Of a stretch of DNA of 22,545 nt, positions 2,498-17,348 are shown piece after piece. Under the pieces are notes generated by a model, which had not been told where the DNA came from, did not search any database, and was given only the letters and a program-made list of their open reading frames with translations. The translations under genes and the position numbers were made by a program. Source of the DNA: a virus (taxonomy: Duplodnaviria > Heunggongvirae > Uroviricota > Caudoviricetes); IMG/VR virus record IMGVR_UViG_2778261065_000029, positions 1-22,545 of that record. One strand, written 5' to 3'. The first letter of the stretch is position 1. Every line of letters starts with the position of its first letter.

Positions 2498-2746
2498 TCA
2501 TGCAGCGTTGCTCACGGGACGATATACACGTTGCTGAACAGGAGGTTTTTTACCCTGGAACTCTGCCGGGCTTGCTGCCTGACGTTCATCAAGCCAACGC
2601 TCAACTTCGTCACGGTTCCATGCGCAGCGTTTGTCAGTGATATACCAGCGTTTAGGAAATTCCCCTGCGCGCTCCATACGGTCGATAGTGCTCCATGACA
2701 GTGGCACCACCGCCAGGAGTTCCTTCTTACCTAATGCACCTTTCAT
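2498..2746 (-). CDS. AlpA-family / excisionase-like small DNA-binding protein
   Basis: 82-aa ORF with a winged-helix-like segment (LSWSTIDRMERAGEFP...WNRDEVERWL) resembling AlpA/Xis regulators. GAGAGG ribosome-binding site upstream of ATG 2746. Confidence 0.6.
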   Translation of the reverse strand: MKGALGKKELLAVVPLSWSTIDRMERAGEFPKRWYITDKRCAWNRDEVERWLDERQAASPAEFQGKKPPVQQRVYRPVSNAA

Positions 2747-6010: not shown

Positions 6011-6025
6011 TTACCGTTGAGGTAA
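6011..6025. promoter_or_regulatory. Operator-like palindrome TTACC-GTTGA-GGTAA (PL-like region)
   Basis: Perfect 5-bp inverted half-sites with a 5-bp spacer; one of nine copies of the same motif in intergenic regions. Confidence 0.5.
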
Positions 6026-6144: not shown

Positions 6145-6729
6145 TTATTGTTTGTTTTTTTCGTTCTGGTTGATGACAAATTCAATGTAACTTTCGATCT
6201 TTGCCTTCTCTGTTTCAGGTAACAATGCGTAGCGCGAGCGGTCATAGTTGATAGTTGCAGGGTCATGCGGATGAATCAGTAGTTCATATCCGTGACGCCC
6301 GAATGCAGATGCAACATTCTCCAGGGTGGAAATGGAAACGCTGACCTCATTGTTTAACAGGCGGCTGATTGTCACCTGGGCGACGCCGGATGCGCGGTGA
6401 AGTTTTCCCTGTGTTGAAAGGTCGCGGCTTTCGCTCATCCAGCGTTCCAGGTTGTGAGCCGCCAGCTGACCAATGTCGCTTGGGCCGACAGGCTGAAAAC
6501 CTTCCTGAGAAAGCGAGCGATCGATATCAAGCCAGTTACGGGGTTTATTGGCGGCAGCTTCAATTTTTCGCGCAACCTGGTCGCCGATAACCTTCTTGCC
6601 AAGAGCCCAGCGGTTTACCAGATTTGCCTGAGTTCCAAGTTTTTCTGCCATCCGCGTCTGAACACCATTGAATTCACGGTCGATCAAGTCGTTGAGATTT
6701 TGCCTGCGGACGTCCTGGATACTTTTCAT
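6145..6729 (-). CDS. CI-like immunity repressor candidate with two HTH motifs and no LexA/S24-type peptidase domain
   Basis: 194-aa ORF divergent from a Cro-like gene across an operator-rich region. HTH-like segments QTRMAEKLGTQANLVNRW and RASGVAQVTISRLLNNEVSVSISTLENVA. No Ala-Gly cleavage site or Ser/Lys dyad context recognisable. Confidence 0.6.
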   Translation of the reverse strand: MKSIQDVRRQNLNDLIDREFNGVQTRMAEKLGTQANLVNRWALGKKVIGDQVARKIEAAANKPRNWLDIDRSLSQEGFQPVGPSDIGQLAAHNLERWMSESRDLSTQGKLHRASGVAQVTISRLLNNEVSVSISTLENVASAFGRHGYELLIHPHDPATINYDRSRYALLPETEKAKIESYIEFVINQNEKNKQ

Positions 6730-7480: not shown

Positions 7481-8272
7481 ATGAGCAGACATGCAACAGA
7501 TTGGGCCTGGGAGACAGATCCAGGCAGCTCATCATTAAAGCTCATACTGCTCTCGATGGCTGACAGAGCCGATGAATATAACCTCTGCTACCCCAGCATA
7601 GAACGCCTCGTTAAAGACACTTGCCTGAATAAAAAAACCGTGCAGGCCGGGCTTATATCGCTCATGAAAATGGGGCTTATTTCAGATACCGGAGAGAGAA
7701 AGGGAGCGACGAAAAGAGTGCGGGTTTTCTCTCTTAATATAACCAAAAACGGGAACATTAAAGGCAACCGGGAAGGGAGTAATGAACCCGAAAACGGAAA
7801 TGTTACCGAAAACGGGAATATACCCAAAAACGGGATGTTGAATGATCCCAAAAACGGGATCCAGAACCAGTCATATAACCAGTCATTTAACCAAGAGAGG
7901 GGGAGCAGGACAAAAACCGGGGATTCTGTGCCTCATGACCCCGGCGCAAACAACGCCGTGATGAATAACTTTGTTCCTCCTGGTGGGCCAGGGCAATTAG
8001 GCAAATTTGTCATGCATGAACAATGGCAACCATCAGATGACTTTCTTCGGAAAAGCTCATTGCAGGGAATCTACCTGGACAGTCTGCCAACGGCACAGGA
8101 ACTTGCAGAGTTCAGAATTTACTGGATGGCTGAGGGTAAGGCATACCATCAGGCACAGTGGGAGCAGAAGCTGGCAAGGCGGCTGCAGATTAGCAGACAG
8201 AAGCAATCAACATTACCTGATAACAACGTTCCGCACTGGAACAGCCCTGAAGCGTGGGAGGATTTCTTGTGA
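7481..8272 (+). CDS. Replication initiator: N-terminal winged-HTH domain fused to a C-terminal DnaT-like domain
   Basis: GGAG ribosome-binding site 7 nt upstream. C-terminal KFVMHEQWQPSDDFL...EFRIYWMAEGKAYHQAQWEQKLARRLQ closely parallels the E. coli DnaT C-terminus as recalled (KFAMYPDWQPDADFI...[27 protein letters not shown]). Central linker is N/G/K-rich repeats. Confidence 0.75.
   Translation: MSRHATDWAWETDPGSSSLKLILLSMADRADEYNLCYPSIERLVKDTCLNKKTVQAGLISLMKMGLISDTGERKGATKRVRVFSLNITKNGNIKGNREGSNEPENGNVTENGNIPKNGMLNDPKNGIQNQSYNQSFNQERGSRTKTGDSVPHDPGANNAVMNNFVPPGGPGQLGKFVMHEQWQPSDDFLRKSSLQGIYLDSLPTAQELAEFRIYWMAEGKAYHQAQWEQKLARRLQISRQKQSTLPDNNVPHWNSPEAWEDFL
7743..7859. repeat. Five iteron-like direct repeats CC(G/C)AAAACGG(G)A inside the initiator gene (candidate origin)
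   Basis: Copies start at about 7743, 7788, 7806, 7823 and 7847, spaced 17-45 bp; they encode the KNGN peptide repeats. Confidence 0.5.
7865..7895. repeat. Tandem 12-bp repeats AACCAGTCAT(A/T)T (two good copies plus a degenerate third)
   Basis: AACCAGTCATAT AACCAGTCATTT AACCAAG... immediately following the iteron block. Confidence 0.45.
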
Positions 8273-11760: not shown

Positions 11761-12091
11761 ATCCCCCGCAGAACGCAAAGCCGCGCAGCGCGCTCGGCAG
11801 TCCGCCGCCGGTGAGCGCAAAATTGAACTGGTGCTGGATAAGCAGGAGCAGGAAATGCTGGAGCGTAACTGTGCCGCCCGTCGCCCTGGTCGTGCGCCGT
11901 ATGAAATGAGCGAATACATCGCGTTACTGATCCGCCAGGATGATGCACGCGTGCGCGGGCGTATAAAATCGATCAGCAGAAAACGTTGCGGTAAGTGCGG
12001 CGAGAGAGTTCCAGTTAATTCATGCCCGTGTAATGGTGACTCGCAATGCTGGGTGACTAAAGGCTGGCATGAAACGAAATTAATAGTGTGA
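11753..12091 (+). CDS. Basic small protein with a C-terminal Cys cluster; candidate late-gene regulator
   Basis: GTG start at 11753 with GGAG 8 nt upstream. Arg/Lys-rich N-terminus (AERKAAQRARQ) and C-terminal CGKCGERVPVNSCPCNGDSQC. It is the last gene before the terminator and terminase module. Confidence 0.45.
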   Translation: MAKSPAERKAAQRARQSAAGERKIELVLDKQEQEMLERNCAARRPGRAPYEMSEYIALLIRQDDARVRGRIKSISRKRCGKCGERVPVNSCPCNGDSQCWVTKGWHETKLIV

Positions 12092-12099
12092 CATGTCAC
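12088..12099. repeat. Perfect 12-bp palindrome GTGACATGTCAC (copy 1), overlapping the stop codon of the preceding gene
   Basis: Exact palindrome; identical copy at 14353-14364 (shared 14-mer TGTGACATGTCACG). Confidence 0.6.
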
Positions 12100-12140
12100 G
12101 AGTAGATTATGCATGATGAATTTGATGGATTTTGAATACT

Positions 12141-12166
12141 GCCGCCAACTATGGCGGCTTTATTTT
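12141..12166 (+). terminator. Intrinsic terminator upstream of the terminase genes
   Basis: Hairpin GCCGCCA-ACTA-TGGCGGC followed by TTTATTTT. Confidence 0.55.
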
Positions 12167-12170
12167 GCAT

Positions 12171-12202
12171 GGTACTATTACCACAACGGTAACTATTACC
12201 AC
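12171..12202. repeat. Direct repeat GGTA(A)CTATTACCAC x2 immediately upstream of the terminase small-subunit start
   Basis: GGTACTATTACCAC (12171-12184) and GGTAACTATTACCAC (12188-12202). The second contains GGTAA-N3-TTACC, the operator half-sites in inverted order. Confidence 0.45.
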
Positions 12203-12209
12203 GGTGGTT

Positions 12210-12806
12210 ATGATGCCTGCTGAACCTAAAACCTATAAACGCAAATCAACGCAATTTAAGCCGCTCACAGCAATGCAGGAGGCTTATTGCCAGTCATACA
12301 TCAAAACGCCTGAAAACCAGACTCAGGCAGCGATTAACGCAGGATTCTCCCCAAACACAGCGGCAGTTAAAGCCAGTGTCATGATGCGCGATGAACGCAT
12401 TCAGAAACGGATTGCCGAGTTGATGGAGGAGCGCAACAAACGAATGCGCGTCAGTGCTGATTACGTTCTCATGCGCCTGGTGGAGATCGACCAGATGGAC
12501 GTGATCGACATCCTCAACGACGATGGGAGCCTTAAACCAATCCGTGAGTGGCCGAAAATCTGGCGCACTACGCTTAGTGGCTTTGATCTGTCGTCGACCA
12601 TCATGAACATGAACGAGGATTCGATAGAGACAATCCTCAAAAAAATTAAATGGCCTGACAAGGTGAAGAACCTTGAGCTGATTGGTAAGCATGTTGATGT
12701 CAACGCGTTCAAAGAACGTCTGGATGTTAATGTGAATGTGACAATTGCTGATCGCATAGCAGCAGCCAGGAAGCGACTCAAAGAACGTCAGGATGGTAAT
12801 CAGTGA
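12210..12806 (+). CDS. Terminase small subunit (Terminase_2-like)
   Basis: Pattern LTAMQEAYCQSYIKTPENQTQAAINAGFSPNTAAVKASVMMRDERIQKRI is typical of small terminase DNA-binding domains. Start placed at ATG 12210 (GGTGG upstream), not the track's 12132 extension. Confidence 0.7.
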   Translation: MMPAEPKTYKRKSTQFKPLTAMQEAYCQSYIKTPENQTQAAINAGFSPNTAAVKASVMMRDERIQKRIAELMEERNKRMRVSADYVLMRLVEIDQMDVIDILNDDGSLKPIREWPKIWRTTLSGFDLSSTIMNMNEDSIETILKKIKWPDKVKNLELIGKHVDVNAFKERLDVNVNVTIADRIAAARKRLKERQDGNQ

Positions 12807-14278
12807 CAGATACAGCGTTATCTCCTGAAGAGCAGTTGATCGAGGATATTGCAGGGTTCACTCACGATCCGCTTGGCTATGCCCTCTATGCGTTCCCGTG
12901 GGGGGAAGAAGGGACTGAACTGGCACATGCTACCGGCCCACGTCAGTGGCAGGCTGATGCGTTCCGAGAGATACGTGATCACCTGCAGAATCCAGCGACG
13001 CGCTATCAGCCGCTTATGCTGGCACGCGCTTCTGGTCACGGTATTGGTAAATCCGCATTCATCTCAATGCTGATCAACTGGGGCATGTCCACTTGCGAGG
13101 ATTGTAAGGTCGTGGTGACCGCCAACACCGACAACCAGCTACGAACGAAGACCTGGCCGGAAATTATCAAGTGGTCGAACCTTGCTATCACGAAAGACTG
13201 GTTTACCTGTACCGCTACCGCGATGTACAGCAATGATCCTGGGCACGACAAGCGGTGGCGAGCTGACGCAATCCCCTGGTCTGAGCACAACACTGAGGCA
13301 TTCGCCGGACTACACAACGAGCGCAAACGCATCATCGTGGTATTCGATGAAGCGTCGAACATTGCGGATCTGGTGTGGGAAGTTGCTGAGGGTGCGCTTA
13401 CGGACGAAGACACTGAGATTATCTGGGTGGCGTTCGGAAACCCTACACGTAACACCGGGCGTTTCCGCGAATGTTTCCGCAAATATAAACACCGCTGGAA
13501 AACTGCGCAGATTGACAGCCGGACGGTGGAAGGCACTAACAAACAGCAGTTGCAGAAATGGGTTGATGACTACGGGGAAGACAGCGACTTCGTTAAAATC
13601 CGTGTGCGCGGCATATTCCCGGATGCATCTGAATTGCAGTTTATCCCTACCGGACTTACTGACGAGGCAATGAAACGGGTGGTAACCGCTGCGCAGGTTG
13701 CACATGCTCCGGTGATAATCGGCGTTGACCCGGCATACTCCGGCGTTGATGACGCTGTGATATACCTGCGGCAGGGGCTGCATAGTAAGGTGCTGTGGAC
13801 CGGCAACAAGACCACTGATGATCTGATTATGGCGAAGCGTATCGCTGACTTTGAAGACCAGTATCAGGCTGACGCGGTGTTCATCGACTTCGGTTACGGT
13901 ACCGGGCTGAAGTCAATCGGTGACGGTTGGGGGCGCACATGGCAACTTGTTCCGTTCGGTGGCGCGTCTACTGACCCGCAGATGCTCAACAAGCGTGGGG
14001 AGATGTTCAACTCATGCAAGACATGGCTGAGGCTGGGCGGCATGCTGGATGACCAGGAAACAGCGGACGACCTGTCGGCGGCAGAGTACAAAGTTCGAGT
14101 GGACGGTAAAATCGTTATCGAACCGAAGGAAGATATCAAGGAGCGGCTTGGGCGTTCGCCGGGTAAAGGCGATGCGCTACTGCTGACGTTTGCGTTCCCT
14201 GTGTCTAAGCGTCTGCGAATTCCCGGGCAGCAGAACCAGCAAGGCAAGGCCATTACAGATTACGATCCCTATGCTTAA
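12803..14278 (+). CDS. Terminase large subunit (ATPase plus nuclease)
   Basis: 491-aa ORF with Walker A-like ARASGHGIGKS, a Walker B-like IIVVFDEAS, and C-terminal acidic nuclease-type motifs (VIIGVDPAYSGVDD, DAVFIDFGYG). GTG start overlaps the small-subunit stop (GTGA). Confidence 0.85.
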   Translation: MTDTALSPEEQLIEDIAGFTHDPLGYALYAFPWGEEGTELAHATGPRQWQADAFREIRDHLQNPATRYQPLMLARASGHGIGKSAFISMLINWGMSTCEDCKVVVTANTDNQLRTKTWPEIIKWSNLAITKDWFTCTATAMYSNDPGHDKRWRADAIPWSEHNTEAFAGLHNERKRIIVVFDEASNIADLVWEVAEGALTDEDTEIIWVAFGNPTRNTGRFRECFRKYKHRWKTAQIDSRTVEGTNKQQLQKWVDDYGEDSDFVKIRVRGIFPDASELQFIPTGLTDEAMKRVVTAAQVAHAPVIIGVDPAYSGVDDAVIYLRQGLHSKVLWTGNKTTDDLIMAKRIADFEDQYQADAVFIDFGYGTGLKSIGDGWGRTWQLVPFGGASTDPQMLNKRGEMFNSCKTWLRLGGMLDDQETADDLSAAEYKVRVDGKIVIEPKEDIKERLGRSPGKGDALLLTFAFPVSKRLRIPGQQNQQGKAITDYDPYA

Positions 14279-14328
14279 TCCGTTAGCGGGGATAATGACG
14301 GAGATATCCTCTGGTGAGGATAAAACAA

Positions 14329-14348
14329 AGCCAGCTCATCGGCTGGCT
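14329..14348. terminator. Bidirectional terminator between the convergent terminase large subunit and the minus-strand ORF
   Basis: Hairpin AGCCAGC-TCATCG-GCTGGCT with T-rich sequence on both flanks (GTTTGT on plus, CTTTGTTTTAT on minus). Confidence 0.5.
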
Positions 14349-14352
14349 GTTT

Positions 14353-14364
14353 GTGACATGTCAC
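14353..14364. repeat. Perfect 12-bp palindrome GTGACATGTCAC (copy 2)
   Basis: Identical to the copy at 12088-12099; lies between the stop of the minus-strand ORF and the terminator hairpin. Confidence 0.6.
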
Positions 14365-14368
14365 GGTG

Positions 14369-14740
14369 TTATTGCTCGCTTAACTTCTGCTTCAGCAAGT
14401 AACCTTCAAGCATCCAGATTTTGTTTACAGCATTCTGCCGGGCAATCTTCCGACCAATTTCCGCATCAAAGTTTTCCGGGCTTGCACAGGCGCTCTCTCC
14501 GGTGACGGTGAAGCCATTGCGCAGCACCAGAACGCAGAACGTCAGCAGAGAAAGTGATTCGTGCGGCTGGTAGTTTACCTCTCCGCCAGTATGTTTCGCT
14601 TTTATGGCTACGCCAAAGATACCATCTTCTGCTGTGAAATATGCCTCCTGAGCAATAATACTCTCGATATGGTCTGGCGTAACGCGCGGCGCGGCTAAAC
14701 CTTTAGCCTGAATTTCAGATTCAATGTCTTTGTCACTCAT
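14369..14740 (-). CDS. Hypothetical protein (123 aa) in a reverse-oriented cargo locus
   Basis: ORF opposite to the flanking terminase and head genes, with AAGGTGAG ribosome-binding site. Weak, unverified recollection of a Gp49/Gp66-like phage family. Confidence 0.55.
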   Translation of the reverse strand: MSDKDIESEIQAKGLAAPRVTPDHIESIIAQEAYFTAEDGIFGVAIKAKHTGGEVNYQPHESLSLLTFCVLVLRNGFTVTGESACASPENFDAEIGRKIARQNAVNKIWMLEGYLLKQKLSEQ

Positions 14741-14756
14741 AGTCTAATCTCACCTT

Positions 14757-14780
14757 AAAAAAATGCCCGGCGAACCGGGC
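14757..14780 (-). terminator. Terminator/attenuator-like hairpin plus U7-8 tract directly upstream of the ribosome-binding site of the 123-aa ORF
   Basis: Minus strand reads GCCCGG-TTCG-CCGGGC then A, a U7 run and AAGGTGAG...ATG. About 16 nt separate the U-tract from the start codon. Confidence 0.4.
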
Positions 14781-14864
14781 GAACTGGAAGCAATGAGTTA
14801 TGCCTTCCGTGGCTGTACTGGTTTACAGCATGAAGCCATCGCAATGGCGTCCTGCTGTAAAAAG

Positions 14865-14900
14865 GGCGGTGATAGTCCTTCAAGGGAAACCATCACCGCC
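14865..14900 (-). terminator. Possible hairpin/terminator downstream of the tRNA
   Basis: 9-bp inverted repeat GGCGGTGAT...ATCACCGCC with a ~18-nt loop, followed on the minus strand by CTTTTTAC. Confidence 0.25.
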
Positions 14901-14943
14901 AAGCCCCTGGAACTTCTGGCATCACGGTCCTTAGGCGTGATTC

Positions 14944-15020
14944 TGGCGTGGCATGCAGGATTCGAACCTGCGACCGACCGCTTAGAAGGCGGTTGCTCTG
15001 TCCAACTGAGCTAATGCCAC
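14944..15020 (-). tRNA. tRNA-Arg (anticodon UCU), argU-like, with encoded CCA
   Basis: Minus-strand 77-nt sequence GTGGCATTAGCTCAGTTGGACAGAGCAACCGCCTTCTAAGCGGTCGGTCGCAGGTTCGAATCCTGCATGCCACGCCA folds as a cloverleaf: 7-bp acceptor stem GTGGCAT/ATGCCAC, D-arm GCTC/GAGC, anticodon stem ACCGC/GCGGT with loop CUUCUAA, T-arm GCAGG-TTCGAAT-CCTGC. Near-identical to E. coli argU apart from stem substitutions (from memory). Confidence 0.85.
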
Positions 15021-15342
15021 AACGCTGAGAGCACTTAGCCTGTTAAGGCGCCACACTTTGTCGCGGCTCCATAAATGCTCTCATCGTTGCACCCTCGTCT
15101 CTTCCGAGGCGTCACACCGAATCGCCGGGATGGTGAATCCCCGTGCGCGGAATAAAACCGCTCGACTTGCACATTCCGGCTACCTGGTTCGTTTGCCCGA
15201 GCAAGGGAGGGTGCCCATTAAACGTATCCAGACCGCTATCGGCGCATGTGCCATACGCCGTACTGCTCAAAATAAAATCTCACTCCACCTGTTCAATTTA
15301 ACGACAAGCCAGTCAGGTTAATAACAGGAATGCACTCTCTGC

Positions 15343-15357
15343 TTACCTGAAAGGTAA
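15343..15357. promoter_or_regulatory. Operator-like palindrome TTACC-TGAAA-GGTAA upstream of the head-gene operon
   Basis: Perfect copy about 90 bp upstream of the first head-module ORF; GGTAATAATT is repeated again at 15415-15424. Confidence 0.45.
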
Positions 15358-15447
15358 TAATTCGTGCGTTAAATGTCAACTGTCTACGATAAATAAATCA
15401 TATGTGGTTAAATTGGTAATAATTTAATTGCGTACGGAGTCATTGAT

Positions 15448-15654
15448 ATGTGCATGGGTAGCTCACCATCAGTGCCTGCAACACCAGAAGTTCAGGCAGC
15501 ACCACAGGAGCAGGATGCCGCCGTTGTTGATGCCCGCGACGAAGAAACACGTCGCCGTCGCGCTGCTGCTGGTCGTAGTTCTACGCTGCTTACCGGTTCT
15601 CAGGGTGACACATCAACCGCTAATACCAGCGGTAAAACGCTGCTTGGTCAGTAA
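15448..15654 (+). CDS. Hypothetical small protein (68 aa), low-complexity, first gene of the head operon
   Basis: ATG preceded by GGAGTCATTGAT. Ala/Gln/Thr/Arg-rich and likely disordered (MCMGSSPSVPATPEVQAAPQEQD...). Confidence 0.45.
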   Translation: MCMGSSPSVPATPEVQAAPQEQDAAVVDARDEETRRRRAAAGRSSTLLTGSQGDTSTANTSGKTLLGQ

Positions 15655-15668
15655 CCGGAGTCATTGAA

Positions 15669-17348
15669 ATGGCGGAAACAACTAAAGAGCGATTGAACAA
15701 ACAGTTCGCACAACTTGAAAGCGAGCGTCAGTCGTTCGAGCCGCACTGGCGCGAGTTGAGTGATTACATCAACCCGCGTGGTTCCCGCTTTCTGACTTCT
15801 GAGGTCAACCGTAACGATCGACGCAATACACGCATTATTGATTCGACCGGGACTATGGCGGCGCGCACTCTCGCCAGCGGCATGATGTCAGGCATCACAA
15901 GCCCCGCGCGTCCGTGGTTTCGCCTGGCTACGCCAGATCCTGAAATGATGGATTATGGCCCTGTTAAGTTGTGGCTTGAGGCGGTGCAGAACCGCATGAA
16001 CGATATGTTCAATAAGTCGAATCTCTATCAGTCGCTGCCGCAGTTATACGGAAGCCTCGGCACATACAGCACTGGTGCAATGGCGGTACTGGAGGATGAC
16101 GATGACATCATTCGCACAATGCCATTCCCGATAGGCAGTTACTACCTGGCTAACTCACCTCGTGGCAGTGTGGACACCTGTTTTCGCAAGTTCTCTATGA
16201 CTGTTCGTCAGCTTGTTCAGGAGTTCGGGCTAAATAACGTCAGCGAATCCGTAAAAAGCATGTGGGAAAGCGGCACCTACGAGAAGTGGATTGAAGTGAT
16301 GCATTCGGTTTACCCGAACATTGACCGCGATACATCGAAGCTGGATAGCAAGAACAAGCCATTCAAATCGGTTTATTACGAGGTTGGCGGTGATAACGAC
16401 AAGTTGTTGCGTGAGTCAGGATTCGATGAGTTTCCAATTATGGCTCCGCGCTGGGAAGTTAACGGCGAAGATGTTTATGGATCATCATGCCCGGGTATGC
16501 TGGCGCTTGGACCTGTTAAGGCATTGCAGCTTCTCCAGAAGCGCAAGTCGCAGTTGATTGATAAAGCCACCAATCCGCCGATGATTGCTCCGACTTCCCT
16601 CAAGAATCAGCGCGCCTCCCTTCTTCCTGGCGACATCACGTATATCGATCAGATTACTGGTCAGGATGGTTTCAGGCCTGCTTATCTGGTTAACCCCAGT
16701 ACAGCAGATCTGGTGGCAGACATTCAGGACACTCGTCAAATCATTAACAGTGCCTACTTTGTCGATCTGTTCATGATGTTGCAGAACATCAATACCCGTT
16801 CGATGCCTGTTGAAGCGGTGATCGAAATGAAAGAAGAAAAACTTCTGATGTTGGGGCCGGTTCTGGAGCGTCTGAACGACGAATGTCTTAATCCTCTCAT
16901 TGACCGCGCTTTCTCGATGATGGTGCGTAAAAACATGCTGCCGCCCCCGCCTGACGCGATGGAAGGTATGCCCCTGAAGGTCGAATACATTTCCGTCATG
17001 GCTCAGGCGCAGAAGTCTATCGGCCTGTCCAGTCTGGCGTCTACGGTCAACTTCATTGGTCAACTTGCGCAAGCGAAACCAGAAGCTCTCGACAAACTCA
17101 ACGTTGATCAGGCAATCGATGCATTCGCTGATATGTCCGGAGTGTCTCCAACCGTCATTGTTCCGCAGGAACAGGTTGAGCAGGCTCGCCAGCAACGGGC
17201 ACAGCAACAACAGCAGCAACAAATGATGGAGATGGGGATGGCGGCGGCACAGGGTGCCAAGACGCTAAGCGAAGCTAAAACTTCGGATCCGAGTGTTTTG
17301 TCAGCTATGGCGAATGCAGTTAGTGGTCAGGGTGGGCAATCACAATGA
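15669..17348 (+). CDS. Portal (head-to-tail connector) protein, podovirus/T7 gp8-like
   Basis: 559-aa ORF downstream of the terminase module. Q-rich C-terminal tail (QARQQRAQQQQQQQMMEMGMAAAQGA) resembles the T7 gp8 C-terminus as recalled. Ribosome-binding site GGAGTCATTGAA. Confidence 0.75.
   Translation: MAETTKERLNKQFAQLESERQSFEPHWRELSDYINPRGSRFLTSEVNRNDRRNTRIIDSTGTMAARTLASGMMSGITSPARPWFRLATPDPEMMDYGPVKLWLEAVQNRMNDMFNKSNLYQSLPQLYGSLGTYSTGAMAVLEDDDDIIRTMPFPIGSYYLANSPRGSVDTCFRKFSMTVRQLVQEFGLNNVSESVKSMWESGTYEKWIEVMHSVYPNIDRDTSKLDSKNKPFKSVYYEVGGDNDKLLRESGFDEFPIMAPRWEVNGEDVYGSSCPGMLALGPVKALQLLQKRKSQLIDKATNPPMIAPTSLKNQRASLLPGDITYIDQITGQDGFRPAYLVNPSTADLVADIQDTRQIINSAYFVDLFMMLQNINTRSMPVEAVIEMKEEKLLMLGPVLERLNDECLNPLIDRAFSMMVRKNMLPPPPDAMEGMPLKVEYISVMAQAQKSIGLSSLASTVNFIGQLAQAKPEALDKLNVDQAIDAFADMSGVSPTVIVPQEQVEQARQQRAQQQQQQQMMEMGMAAAQGAKTLSEAKTSDPSVLSAMANAVSGQGGQSQ

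Follow-up and report, generated by a model that had tools for sequence, protein, structure and literature searches.

The described element closest to the hairpin considered here lies in phage epsilon15, whose record (AY150271.2) lists a minus-strand stem_loop at 2559..2582 as "rho-independent terminator; transcriptional termination." That stem-loop stands 12 nt upstream of an Acb4-like CDS, the homologue of the 123-aa ORF discussed below, and is the orthologue of our hairpin (T2), so that a terminator role is already annotated for the element. Partial parallels exist in several other systems. The tandem terminators of bacterial tRNA and rRNA operons consist of two G+C-rich hairpins with U-runs that follow a tRNA on one strand; classical attenuators (trp/his, riboswitches, T-box) set a terminator between a promoter and a promoterless ORF; the lambdoid N/nut and Q/qut systems and HK022 put combine genes behind terminators with structured RNA soon after an early-type promoter; and in morons and anti-defence hotspots, phages that are otherwise collinear differ in the accessory genes held between conserved flanks.

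The locus analyzed here, part of a 22,545-nt stretch of phage DNA (hereafter the window), resembles each of these and departs from each. T2 shares with the epsilon15 terminator its distance of 12–16 nt from an Acb4-like gene and its flanks (CCAGTTC upstream; A, T7, and AAGGTGA downstream), whereas the stems differ by two compensatory pairs. Epsilon15 also differs from the window through a deletion that removed the tRNA-Arg, most of the leader RNA, and the 5′ half of the first terminator (T1); T2 and the gene remain, in the order promoter, leader remnant, T2, gene, with T2 as the sole terminator between. Unlike tRNA and rRNA operons, the window has a Shine–Dalgarno sequence and a start codon right after the second terminator, and this terminator persists in relatives that have lost the tRNA. 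Unlike classical attenuators, T2 comes without an alternative antiterminator pairing, a conserved leader peptide, or a known aptamer; and, in contrast to the lambdoid and HK022 systems, the window yielded no homologous protein or RNA element, so that the likeness is one of analogy. The slot behind T2 resembles morons and hotspots in its content, including the sponge cargos Acb4 and Tad2-like, but most of its cargos have no promoter of their own, and they share a common platform of terminator, U-run, and Shine–Dalgarno sequence with the exchange junction at the start codon.

Source phage and comparison loci

The T2 region is 100% identical to an E. coli chromosome with a prophage adjoining guaA and ~99% identical to phage phiV10 (genus Uetakevirus, epsilon15-like podoviruses); the window is an epsilon15/phiV10-like (Uetakevirus) E. 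coli prophage. T2 lies inside a minus-strand insert flanked on one side by the large terminase gene (12803..14278, plus strand) and on the other by a small gene and the portal gene (15448.., plus strand). Read along the minus strand, the insert presents tRNA-Arg(UCU), T1, an 84-nt interval, T2, the Shine–Dalgarno sequence, the 123-aa ORF, and a third terminator, T3 (Table 1). The relatives compared came from four sources: IMG/VR loci anchored on the tRNA 3′ end (120), BLAST searches for phage records, two Citrobacter genomes, and loci anchored on the protein (80); a scan of species-representative genomes with the interval pattern returned only the two Citrobacter loci.

Table 1. Coordinates of T2, its upstream unit, and the cargo slot in the window
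Feature	Position	Strand	Details
T2 hairpin, GCCCGG-UUCG-CCGGGC	14765..14780	−	Six G-C pairs, 4-nt loop
T2 arms and loop	GCCCGG 14780–14775; TTCG loop 14774–14771; CCGGGC 14770–14765	−	Read from sequence
U7 tract of T2	14757..14763	−	Single A (14764) between stem and U7
5′ UTR, AAGGTGAGATTAGACT	14741..14756	−	16 nt from U7 to ATG; Shine–Dalgarno AAGGTGA
T1–T2 interval	14781..14864	−	Invariant blocks CGCCATTGCGATG and CTGTAAACC; no supported structure
T1, first terminator after the tRNA	14865..14900	−	14-bp stem, then CUUUUU
tRNA-Arg, anticodon UCU	14944..15020	−	
Structured leader RNA	15021..15262	−	Hairpin L1 (15260–15240), TCACCA-loop hairpin, CCUCG-GAAGAGA-CGAGG hairpin
Putative unit promoter	15343..15379	−	−35 TTGACA (15379–15374), 17 nt, −10 TACCTT (15356–15351)
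Operator palindrome TTACCTTTCAGGTAA	15357–15343	−	Contains −10 TACCTT
123-aa cargo ORF	14369..14740	−	PF13876 (Phage_gp49_66)
Palindrome GTGACATGTCAC, right slot border	14353..14364		Second copy at 12088–12099, before terS
T3, terminator after the cargo ORF	14329..14348	−	AGCCAGC-CGATGA-GCTGGCT, then TTGTTTT; right slot flank

Structure and conservation of the terminator

The initial annotation described a UUCG hairpin, a U7 tract, and a 16-nt gap ahead of the 123-aa ORF, and every detail matches the minus-strand sequence, which reads CCAGTTC, hairpin, A, T7, AAGGTGAGATTAGACT, and the ATG at 14740. The hairpin by itself folds at −11.2 kcal/mol. A consensus scan of the window classed T2 as terminator-like; because this loose scan discriminated poorly (three sites vs. 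2.2 expected), a strict scan was run, in which a stem had to be perfect, 6 bp or longer, and to contain five or more G-C pairs, with a loop of 3–8 nt and six or more T in the 8 nt that follow. Four distinct sites were recovered from the 22.5-kb window, at 12141(+), 14780(−), 14347(−), and 6123(−), against a mean of 0.11 sites per shuffle in 100 dinucleotide-preserving shuffles. Read on the plus strand, the hairpin has A7 before it and GAACTGG after it, with no T-run; T2 is therefore a one-way signal of the minus strand only. With its G+C-rich stem, short loop, and U-rich tract directly 3′, T2 is a genuine conserved intrinsic (Rho-independent) terminator, with its activity predicted from sequence. 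The T1 hairpin, at −20 to −23 kcal/mol, is strong, and its stem differs from genus to genus; on these grounds T1 is itself regarded as a selected terminator.

Two types of T2 stem were observed among relatives: GCCCGG/CCGGGC, and GCCCAC/GTGGGC, the latter in epsilon15, SPN1S-type phages, PAT1, and the Citrobacter relatives. Two of the six pairs, adjacent to one another, have changed on both sides (GG/CC to AC/GU). Pairing is retained in 94% of cells over 24 distinct variants, and the covariation score exceeds those of all 500 shuffles and all slid controls. This is the pattern of selection on structure rather than sequence, though with few independent events; a single evolutionary event may account for both stem types, in which case the covariation comes down to essentially one change. 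The loop itself is variable (TTCG, TTCGT, TTCC, TTCA, GTCG, and an inverted CGAA), and the A and T-run after the stem are nearly always kept, the run comprising 5–8 T, mostly 7, across 127 relatives. A free loop, a covarying stem, and a kept U-run fit a signal composed of structure plus U-tract. The length of the U-run showed only a weak trend with cargo type, one that is not phylogenetically independent. The inverted loop (GCCCGG-CGAA-CCGGGC) occurs as a natural variant in two loci, L031 and L107, with stem and U-run intact.

In RNAalifold predictions from 12 diverse sequences, T2 is the only covarying element of the T1–T2 interval; two invariant 3-bp hairpins are also predicted there, neither of which competes with T2. 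Rare variants carry a damaged T2, with a mismatch or a missing 5′ arm (L052, L118, and L077), and in one Klebsiella phage (L135) the hairpin is absent altogether. Because a few natural variants (L077, L118, and L135) have a damaged or missing hairpin, T2 is not indispensable.

The unit upstream of the terminator

About 330 nt upstream of the tRNA we place a putative promoter of early type under repressor control, with both its activity and its control predicted. The −35 TTGACA is kept, with rare one-base variants, across relatives from E. coli, Salmonella, Klebsiella, Enterobacter, and Citrobacter, as are the 17-nt spacing and a −10 within the operator; at the operator copy upstream of the unit, the epsilon15 record marks sites for the repressor and for IHF. 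The palindrome TTACC-N5-GGTAA occurs in the window in 10 copies (at 6011, 6073, 6785, 6833, 7170, 9092, 9154, 12178, 12196, and 15343) against 0.34 expected. These copies cluster around the HTH repressor gene and before the early genes, overlapping or flanking promoter-like sites of the early regions, and also lie before terS; the palindrome, dispersed through the genome, probably serves as operator for the 194-aa repressor (6145..6729).

The leader RNA that follows contains, in addition to the hairpins listed in Table 1, a long closing helix adjoining the tRNA. It is nearly invariant in about 100 loci, with compensatory changes in its helices in diverse genera (7 of 39 predicted pairs); no Rfam family matched it, and it is a candidate for a new prophage non-coding RNA. 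Hairpin L1 is kept even in epsilon15. Because epsilon15 has kept T2 while losing the tRNA and T1, T2 is not merely the terminator of the tRNA, and may serve control of the cargo. Several other relatives without tRNA-Arg (L131, L133, L179, L127, L185, L210, and L134) carry different, non-tRNA sequences in its place, inside a conserved stem GTTGTGG...CCACAAC, so that a second variable RNA slot may exist where the tRNA normally stands.

A separate repeat was observed at 7735–7860 of the window, in the region of a DnaT-like/replication gene, where five tandem-like copies of AAT..(A/C)CC.AAAACGGG look like origin iterons.

Transcription through the terminator

The initial annotation held that the hairpin leaves no room for a promoter before the ATG, and indeed none was detected there in either a standard or a permissive scan. 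The standard scan found no promoter anywhere between the tRNA and the ATG. Over the same stretch, the permissive scan (at least 7 of 12 matches) returned two 7/12 matches, neither of them usable: one is inside T1, and the other has a −10 that abuts the ATG and is missing from the common variant. Between T2 and the ATG, no sigma-70 promoter was found. Since a promoter is absent between the tRNA and the ATG, the cargo ORF must be transcribed through T2, and the presence of T3 after the ORF suggests that the cargo really is transcribed; the T3 orthologue is annotated as a terminator in the phiV10 record. The cargo of tRNA-bearing phages stands behind two terminators, and that of epsilon15 behind T2 alone.

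A terminator between a promoter and a promoterless ORF is the arrangement of an attenuator. The missing promoter supports the earlier proposal that the ORF needs read-through; the accompanying idea of an attenuator-like, conditional control found no counterpart in an alternative fold, a leader peptide, or an Rfam family. Across six diverse homologues, folded with 60, 150, or 330 nt of the RNA upstream, the T2 stem has a pairing probability of 0.90–0.99, and neither partition-function nor alignment (RNAalifold) folding produced a mutually exclusive antiterminator fold. A 31-codon ORF ending 23 nt before the hairpin was considered as a leader peptide and rejected, as it is unconserved in Salmonella relatives. 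Rfam, queried for known RNA families across the whole window at the gathering score and over 14300–15700 at E ≤ 10, identified only the tRNA. Regulated antitermination of T2 is possible but unsupported. Our literature search found no transcriptome of a Uetakevirus lysogen; the vB_EcoP_ZX5 paper contains nothing on the T2 region, and a study of a Kapi1 lysogen was set aside as concerning a different, P22-like phage.

An exchangeable slot behind the hairpin

Megablast homology to TL-2011b and the SPN1S group starts at query positions 551–558, which correspond to the U-run. In 96 of the 127 loci, the U-run is followed by AAGGTGA(G/A)A..ATG, and at least seven unrelated ORF families, including PF13876 and Tad2-like PF11195, begin at the conserved ATG. 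The AAGGTGA Shine–Dalgarno sequence is thus kept with the hairpin and not with the ORF, preceding the start codons of unrelated genes. The cargos comprise several Acb4/Gp49 subtypes, a 140-aa MKT(I/A/V)DMLAKY family, a 98-aa protein, a 138-aa membrane protein (SPN9TCW), a 110-aa protein (MKEKTAAERY..), and a 61-aa protein; slot content ranges from 129 nt, in nearly empty slots holding an 8-codon remnant ORF, to about 1.3 kb. In 31 of the 127 loci, a promoter-like sequence with the phage operator palindrome starts directly after the U-run and precedes a larger protein with transmembrane and coiled-coil regions; where the predicted cargo promoter begins right after the U-run in this way, T2 is evidently used as a unit boundary. 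A near-identical Acb4 gene occurs in Stx2/Stx-type phages with a different upstream region and no hairpin, and T2, judged by this comparison, belongs to the upstream flank of the slot and not to the gene.

Conservation extends to the right border of the slot, which is formed by the palindrome GTGACATGTCAC and T3. Of 125 loci, 99 have one or two exact 12-bp copies of GTGACATGTCAC; in those with both copies captured, the pair brackets terS–terL at a spacing of about 2.2–2.5 kb, making the palindrome a candidate late-regulator site, packaging signal, or module boundary. In Enterobacter phage Tyrion (L133), an int-alpA RNA (RF02996, 44 bits) was observed within the cargo slot at 1766–1830.

In the window, the slot holds a 123-aa ORF that matches Pfam PF13876 (Phage_gp49_66) with E = 2.4e-35. 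Two bioRxiv preprints equate PF13876 with Acb4, a cyclic-oligonucleotide sponge that blocks CBASS, and show activity for other members of the family (10.1101/2024.12.30.630793; 10.1101/2025.07.12.664507). The direct match of the ORF to the SPO1 Acb4 structure (PDB 9e4w) is weak (E 0.007). The ORF belongs to the Acb4 family of anti-CBASS sponges, with its own activity predicted. A Tad2-like protein (PF11195, E = 3.2e-24; annotated as DUF2829 in a Klebsiella phage) occupies the same slot in different relatives, and PADLOC returned only coiled-coil noise on nine cargo proteins. Different genes, known anti-defence families among them, thus alternate between conserved flanks, as in an anti-defence hotspot. 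The initial annotation had framed the ORF as a simple moron. It does share with morons a terminator of its own (T3) and presence/absence polymorphism between related phages; a moron's own promoter was not found upstream of the 123-aa ORF in the window, and some alternative cargos have one. That framing gives way to a PF13876/Acb4 gene in a conserved cassette slot, which is best described as an accessory/counter-defence cassette site and not as a lysogenic-conversion moron.

Elsewhere in the window (12109–12210), an 8-codon mini-ORF, MHDEFDGF*, stops 5 nt before a strong terminator (12141–12158 plus T-run), which itself stands about 45 nt upstream of ATGATG at 12210, the likely start of terS; two operator-like sites lie in that gap. 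Some relatives, L036 among them, have "empty" cargo slots occupied by a similar mini-ORF, MKYEFDGF*. The mini-ORF and terminator before terS could be a translation-coupled control of late genes.

Competing explanations

We consider it probable that T2 is a constitutive intrinsic terminator and insulator that closes a non-coding unit, and that the cargo is expressed by read-through from the repressor-controlled upstream promoter. The unit that T2 would close is conserved and mostly non-coding, lying antisense on the minus strand between the terminase and portal genes, and would comprise in order the repressor-operator promoter, a structured leader of ~240 nt, tRNA-Arg(UCU), T1, the 84-nt interval, and T2. 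Together with U7 and the Shine–Dalgarno sequence, T2 would form the fixed left border of the cassette slot, and these elements would be the only expression signals for a cargo drawn from accessory and counter-defence genes swapped into the slot—in the window, an Acb4-family nucleotide sponge. The majority of transcripts would end at T1 or T2, and the Acb4 gene would be expressed from the fraction that reads through; this RNA would be translated efficiently, given its U-rich leader and strong Shine–Dalgarno sequence, and would terminate at T3. Both the termination efficiency and the level of read-through we infer from sequence features. T2 would accordingly be a constitutive attenuator and insulator, and not a sensor switched by a competing RNA fold. 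Several points stand against this reading: one expects a stoichiometric sponge to require strong early expression, which fits poorly with a place behind two good terminators; the survival of T2 in epsilon15 after loss of the tRNA and T1 may mean a role specific to cargo control; the covariation comes down to essentially one change; some natural variants do without an intact hairpin; and the recurrent junctions of terminator, Shine–Dalgarno sequence, and ATG could point to active antitermination and not to a passive leak.

Such antitermination would be processive and regulated, with polymerase from the operator promoter made terminator-resistant by the leader RNA (HK022 put-like) or by a phage protein (lambda N/Q-like), so that T1 and T2 are bypassed only in lytic growth and expression of the sponge is timed. 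We regard this as rather unlikely, though the locus offers several observations in its favour. A terminator before a gene without a promoter recurs, at T2 and the cargo, at T1 and an ORF in BUCT711, and at the 12141 terminator and terS; the structured leader, with its compensatory changes, lies just downstream of the promoter, and its L1 hairpin survives in tRNA-less epsilon15; and the gene for a Zn-finger "transcriptional regulator" (phrog_536) directly precedes the terS terminator, in a position like that of lambda Q. The phrog_536 annotation is generic, with no Pfam match. Against the hypothesis, searches of PHROGs, Pfam, and Rfam recognized no antiterminator protein and none of the nut, qut, and put elements; no motif or nut-like repeat is common to the leaders of the three operator-controlled promoters; epsilon15 has kept T2 and the gene without most of the leader; and the argument as a whole proceeds by analogy. 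Quite improbable, in our judgment, is that T2 serves mainly as the 3′ end of a small or processed RNA, either the T1–T2 interval or a 3′ external transcribed spacer of the tRNA precursor, with its position before the cargo incidental. The combination of a hairpin and a following U7 is typical of sRNAs that bind Hfq; the interval blocks CGCCATTGCGATG and CTGTAAACC are invariant in E. coli, Salmonella, Klebsiella, Enterobacter, and Citrobacter relatives, and epsilon15 retains the interval and T2 although it is without the tRNA. But the interval holds no promoter and no supported structure besides T2, a natural deletion in one relative (L026) removes 33 nt of it and leaves the hairpin, and the conservation of a Shine–Dalgarno sequence immediately behind the U-run shows use of the downstream side as well. 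A weak RyhB-like match at 14757–14811 (minus strand), which reflects a common CAUUGCUUCCAGU and a terminator, was rejected as non-significant (18 bits against a gathering score of 55; E = 2.4), and the CAUUGCUUCCAGU motif is missing from Klebsiella versions.

T2 could instead be a 5′ stabilizer of a cargo mRNA cut from the tRNA precursor, which we hold to be very unlikely. A processed acb4 mRNA would have its 5′ end at the hairpin or close to it, and 5′ stem-loops do shield E. coli mRNAs (e.g., ompA) from RNase E; U7, however, is conserved although a stabilizer does not need it. In a variant of this explanation, a weak unconventional promoter in the U-run and Shine–Dalgarno region would start transcription at or near the AUG, and the common TAAGGT-GAGATT-ATG does have a TAnnnT hexamer 6 nt before the A of the ATG. 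Against it, a −35 is absent, the −10 matches at only 3 of 6 positions, and a 5-nt insertion in the window shifts the hexamer relative to the ATG. Scarcely credible, finally, is that the hairpin is incidental to a plus-strand protein gene, PhiV10p04 (window ORF 14763..15014), even though the records of phiV10 and TL-2011b both annotate this 83-aa ORF. The ORF runs antisense to both terminators and to a bona fide tRNA gene, RefSeq makes no such call, and the RNA stem is preserved by compensatory changes. PhiV10p04 is probably no gene, because natural indels in relatives (TTCGT loop insertions, changes in U-run length, and the 33-nt deletion) would shift or cut its frame.

Implications

T2 itself is an ordinary intrinsic terminator, and its value lies in its context. 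It marks the fixed left border of an exchange site for small accessory genes in epsilon15/phiV10-like prophages of E. coli, Salmonella, Klebsiella, Enterobacter, and Citrobacter. To the annotated epsilon15 stem-loop, the present analysis adds a platform of terminator, U-run, and Shine–Dalgarno sequence before an exchangeable counter-defence slot, and an undescribed structured leader RNA in the same unit. Two of the slot cargos belong to known nucleotide-sponge families that disarm CBASS and Thoeris, and the other small proteins encoded behind the hairpin and Shine–Dalgarno sequence (the 140-aa MKT.DMLAKY family, the 110-aa MKEKTAAERY protein, and others) are candidate counter-defence proteins.

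The arrangement poses the question of how a phage expresses stoichiometric inhibitors from behind one or two good terminators. It is conceivable, if unlikely, that uetakeviruses maintain a "plug-and-play" platform of repressor-controlled early promoter, structured leader, optional tRNA, two terminators, and fixed U-run and Shine–Dalgarno sequence, in which read-through is licensed by the leader RNA (put-like) or by a phage factor. Were this so, the Acb4 and Tad2 sponges would be silent in the lysogen and would be turned on immediately at infection or induction.
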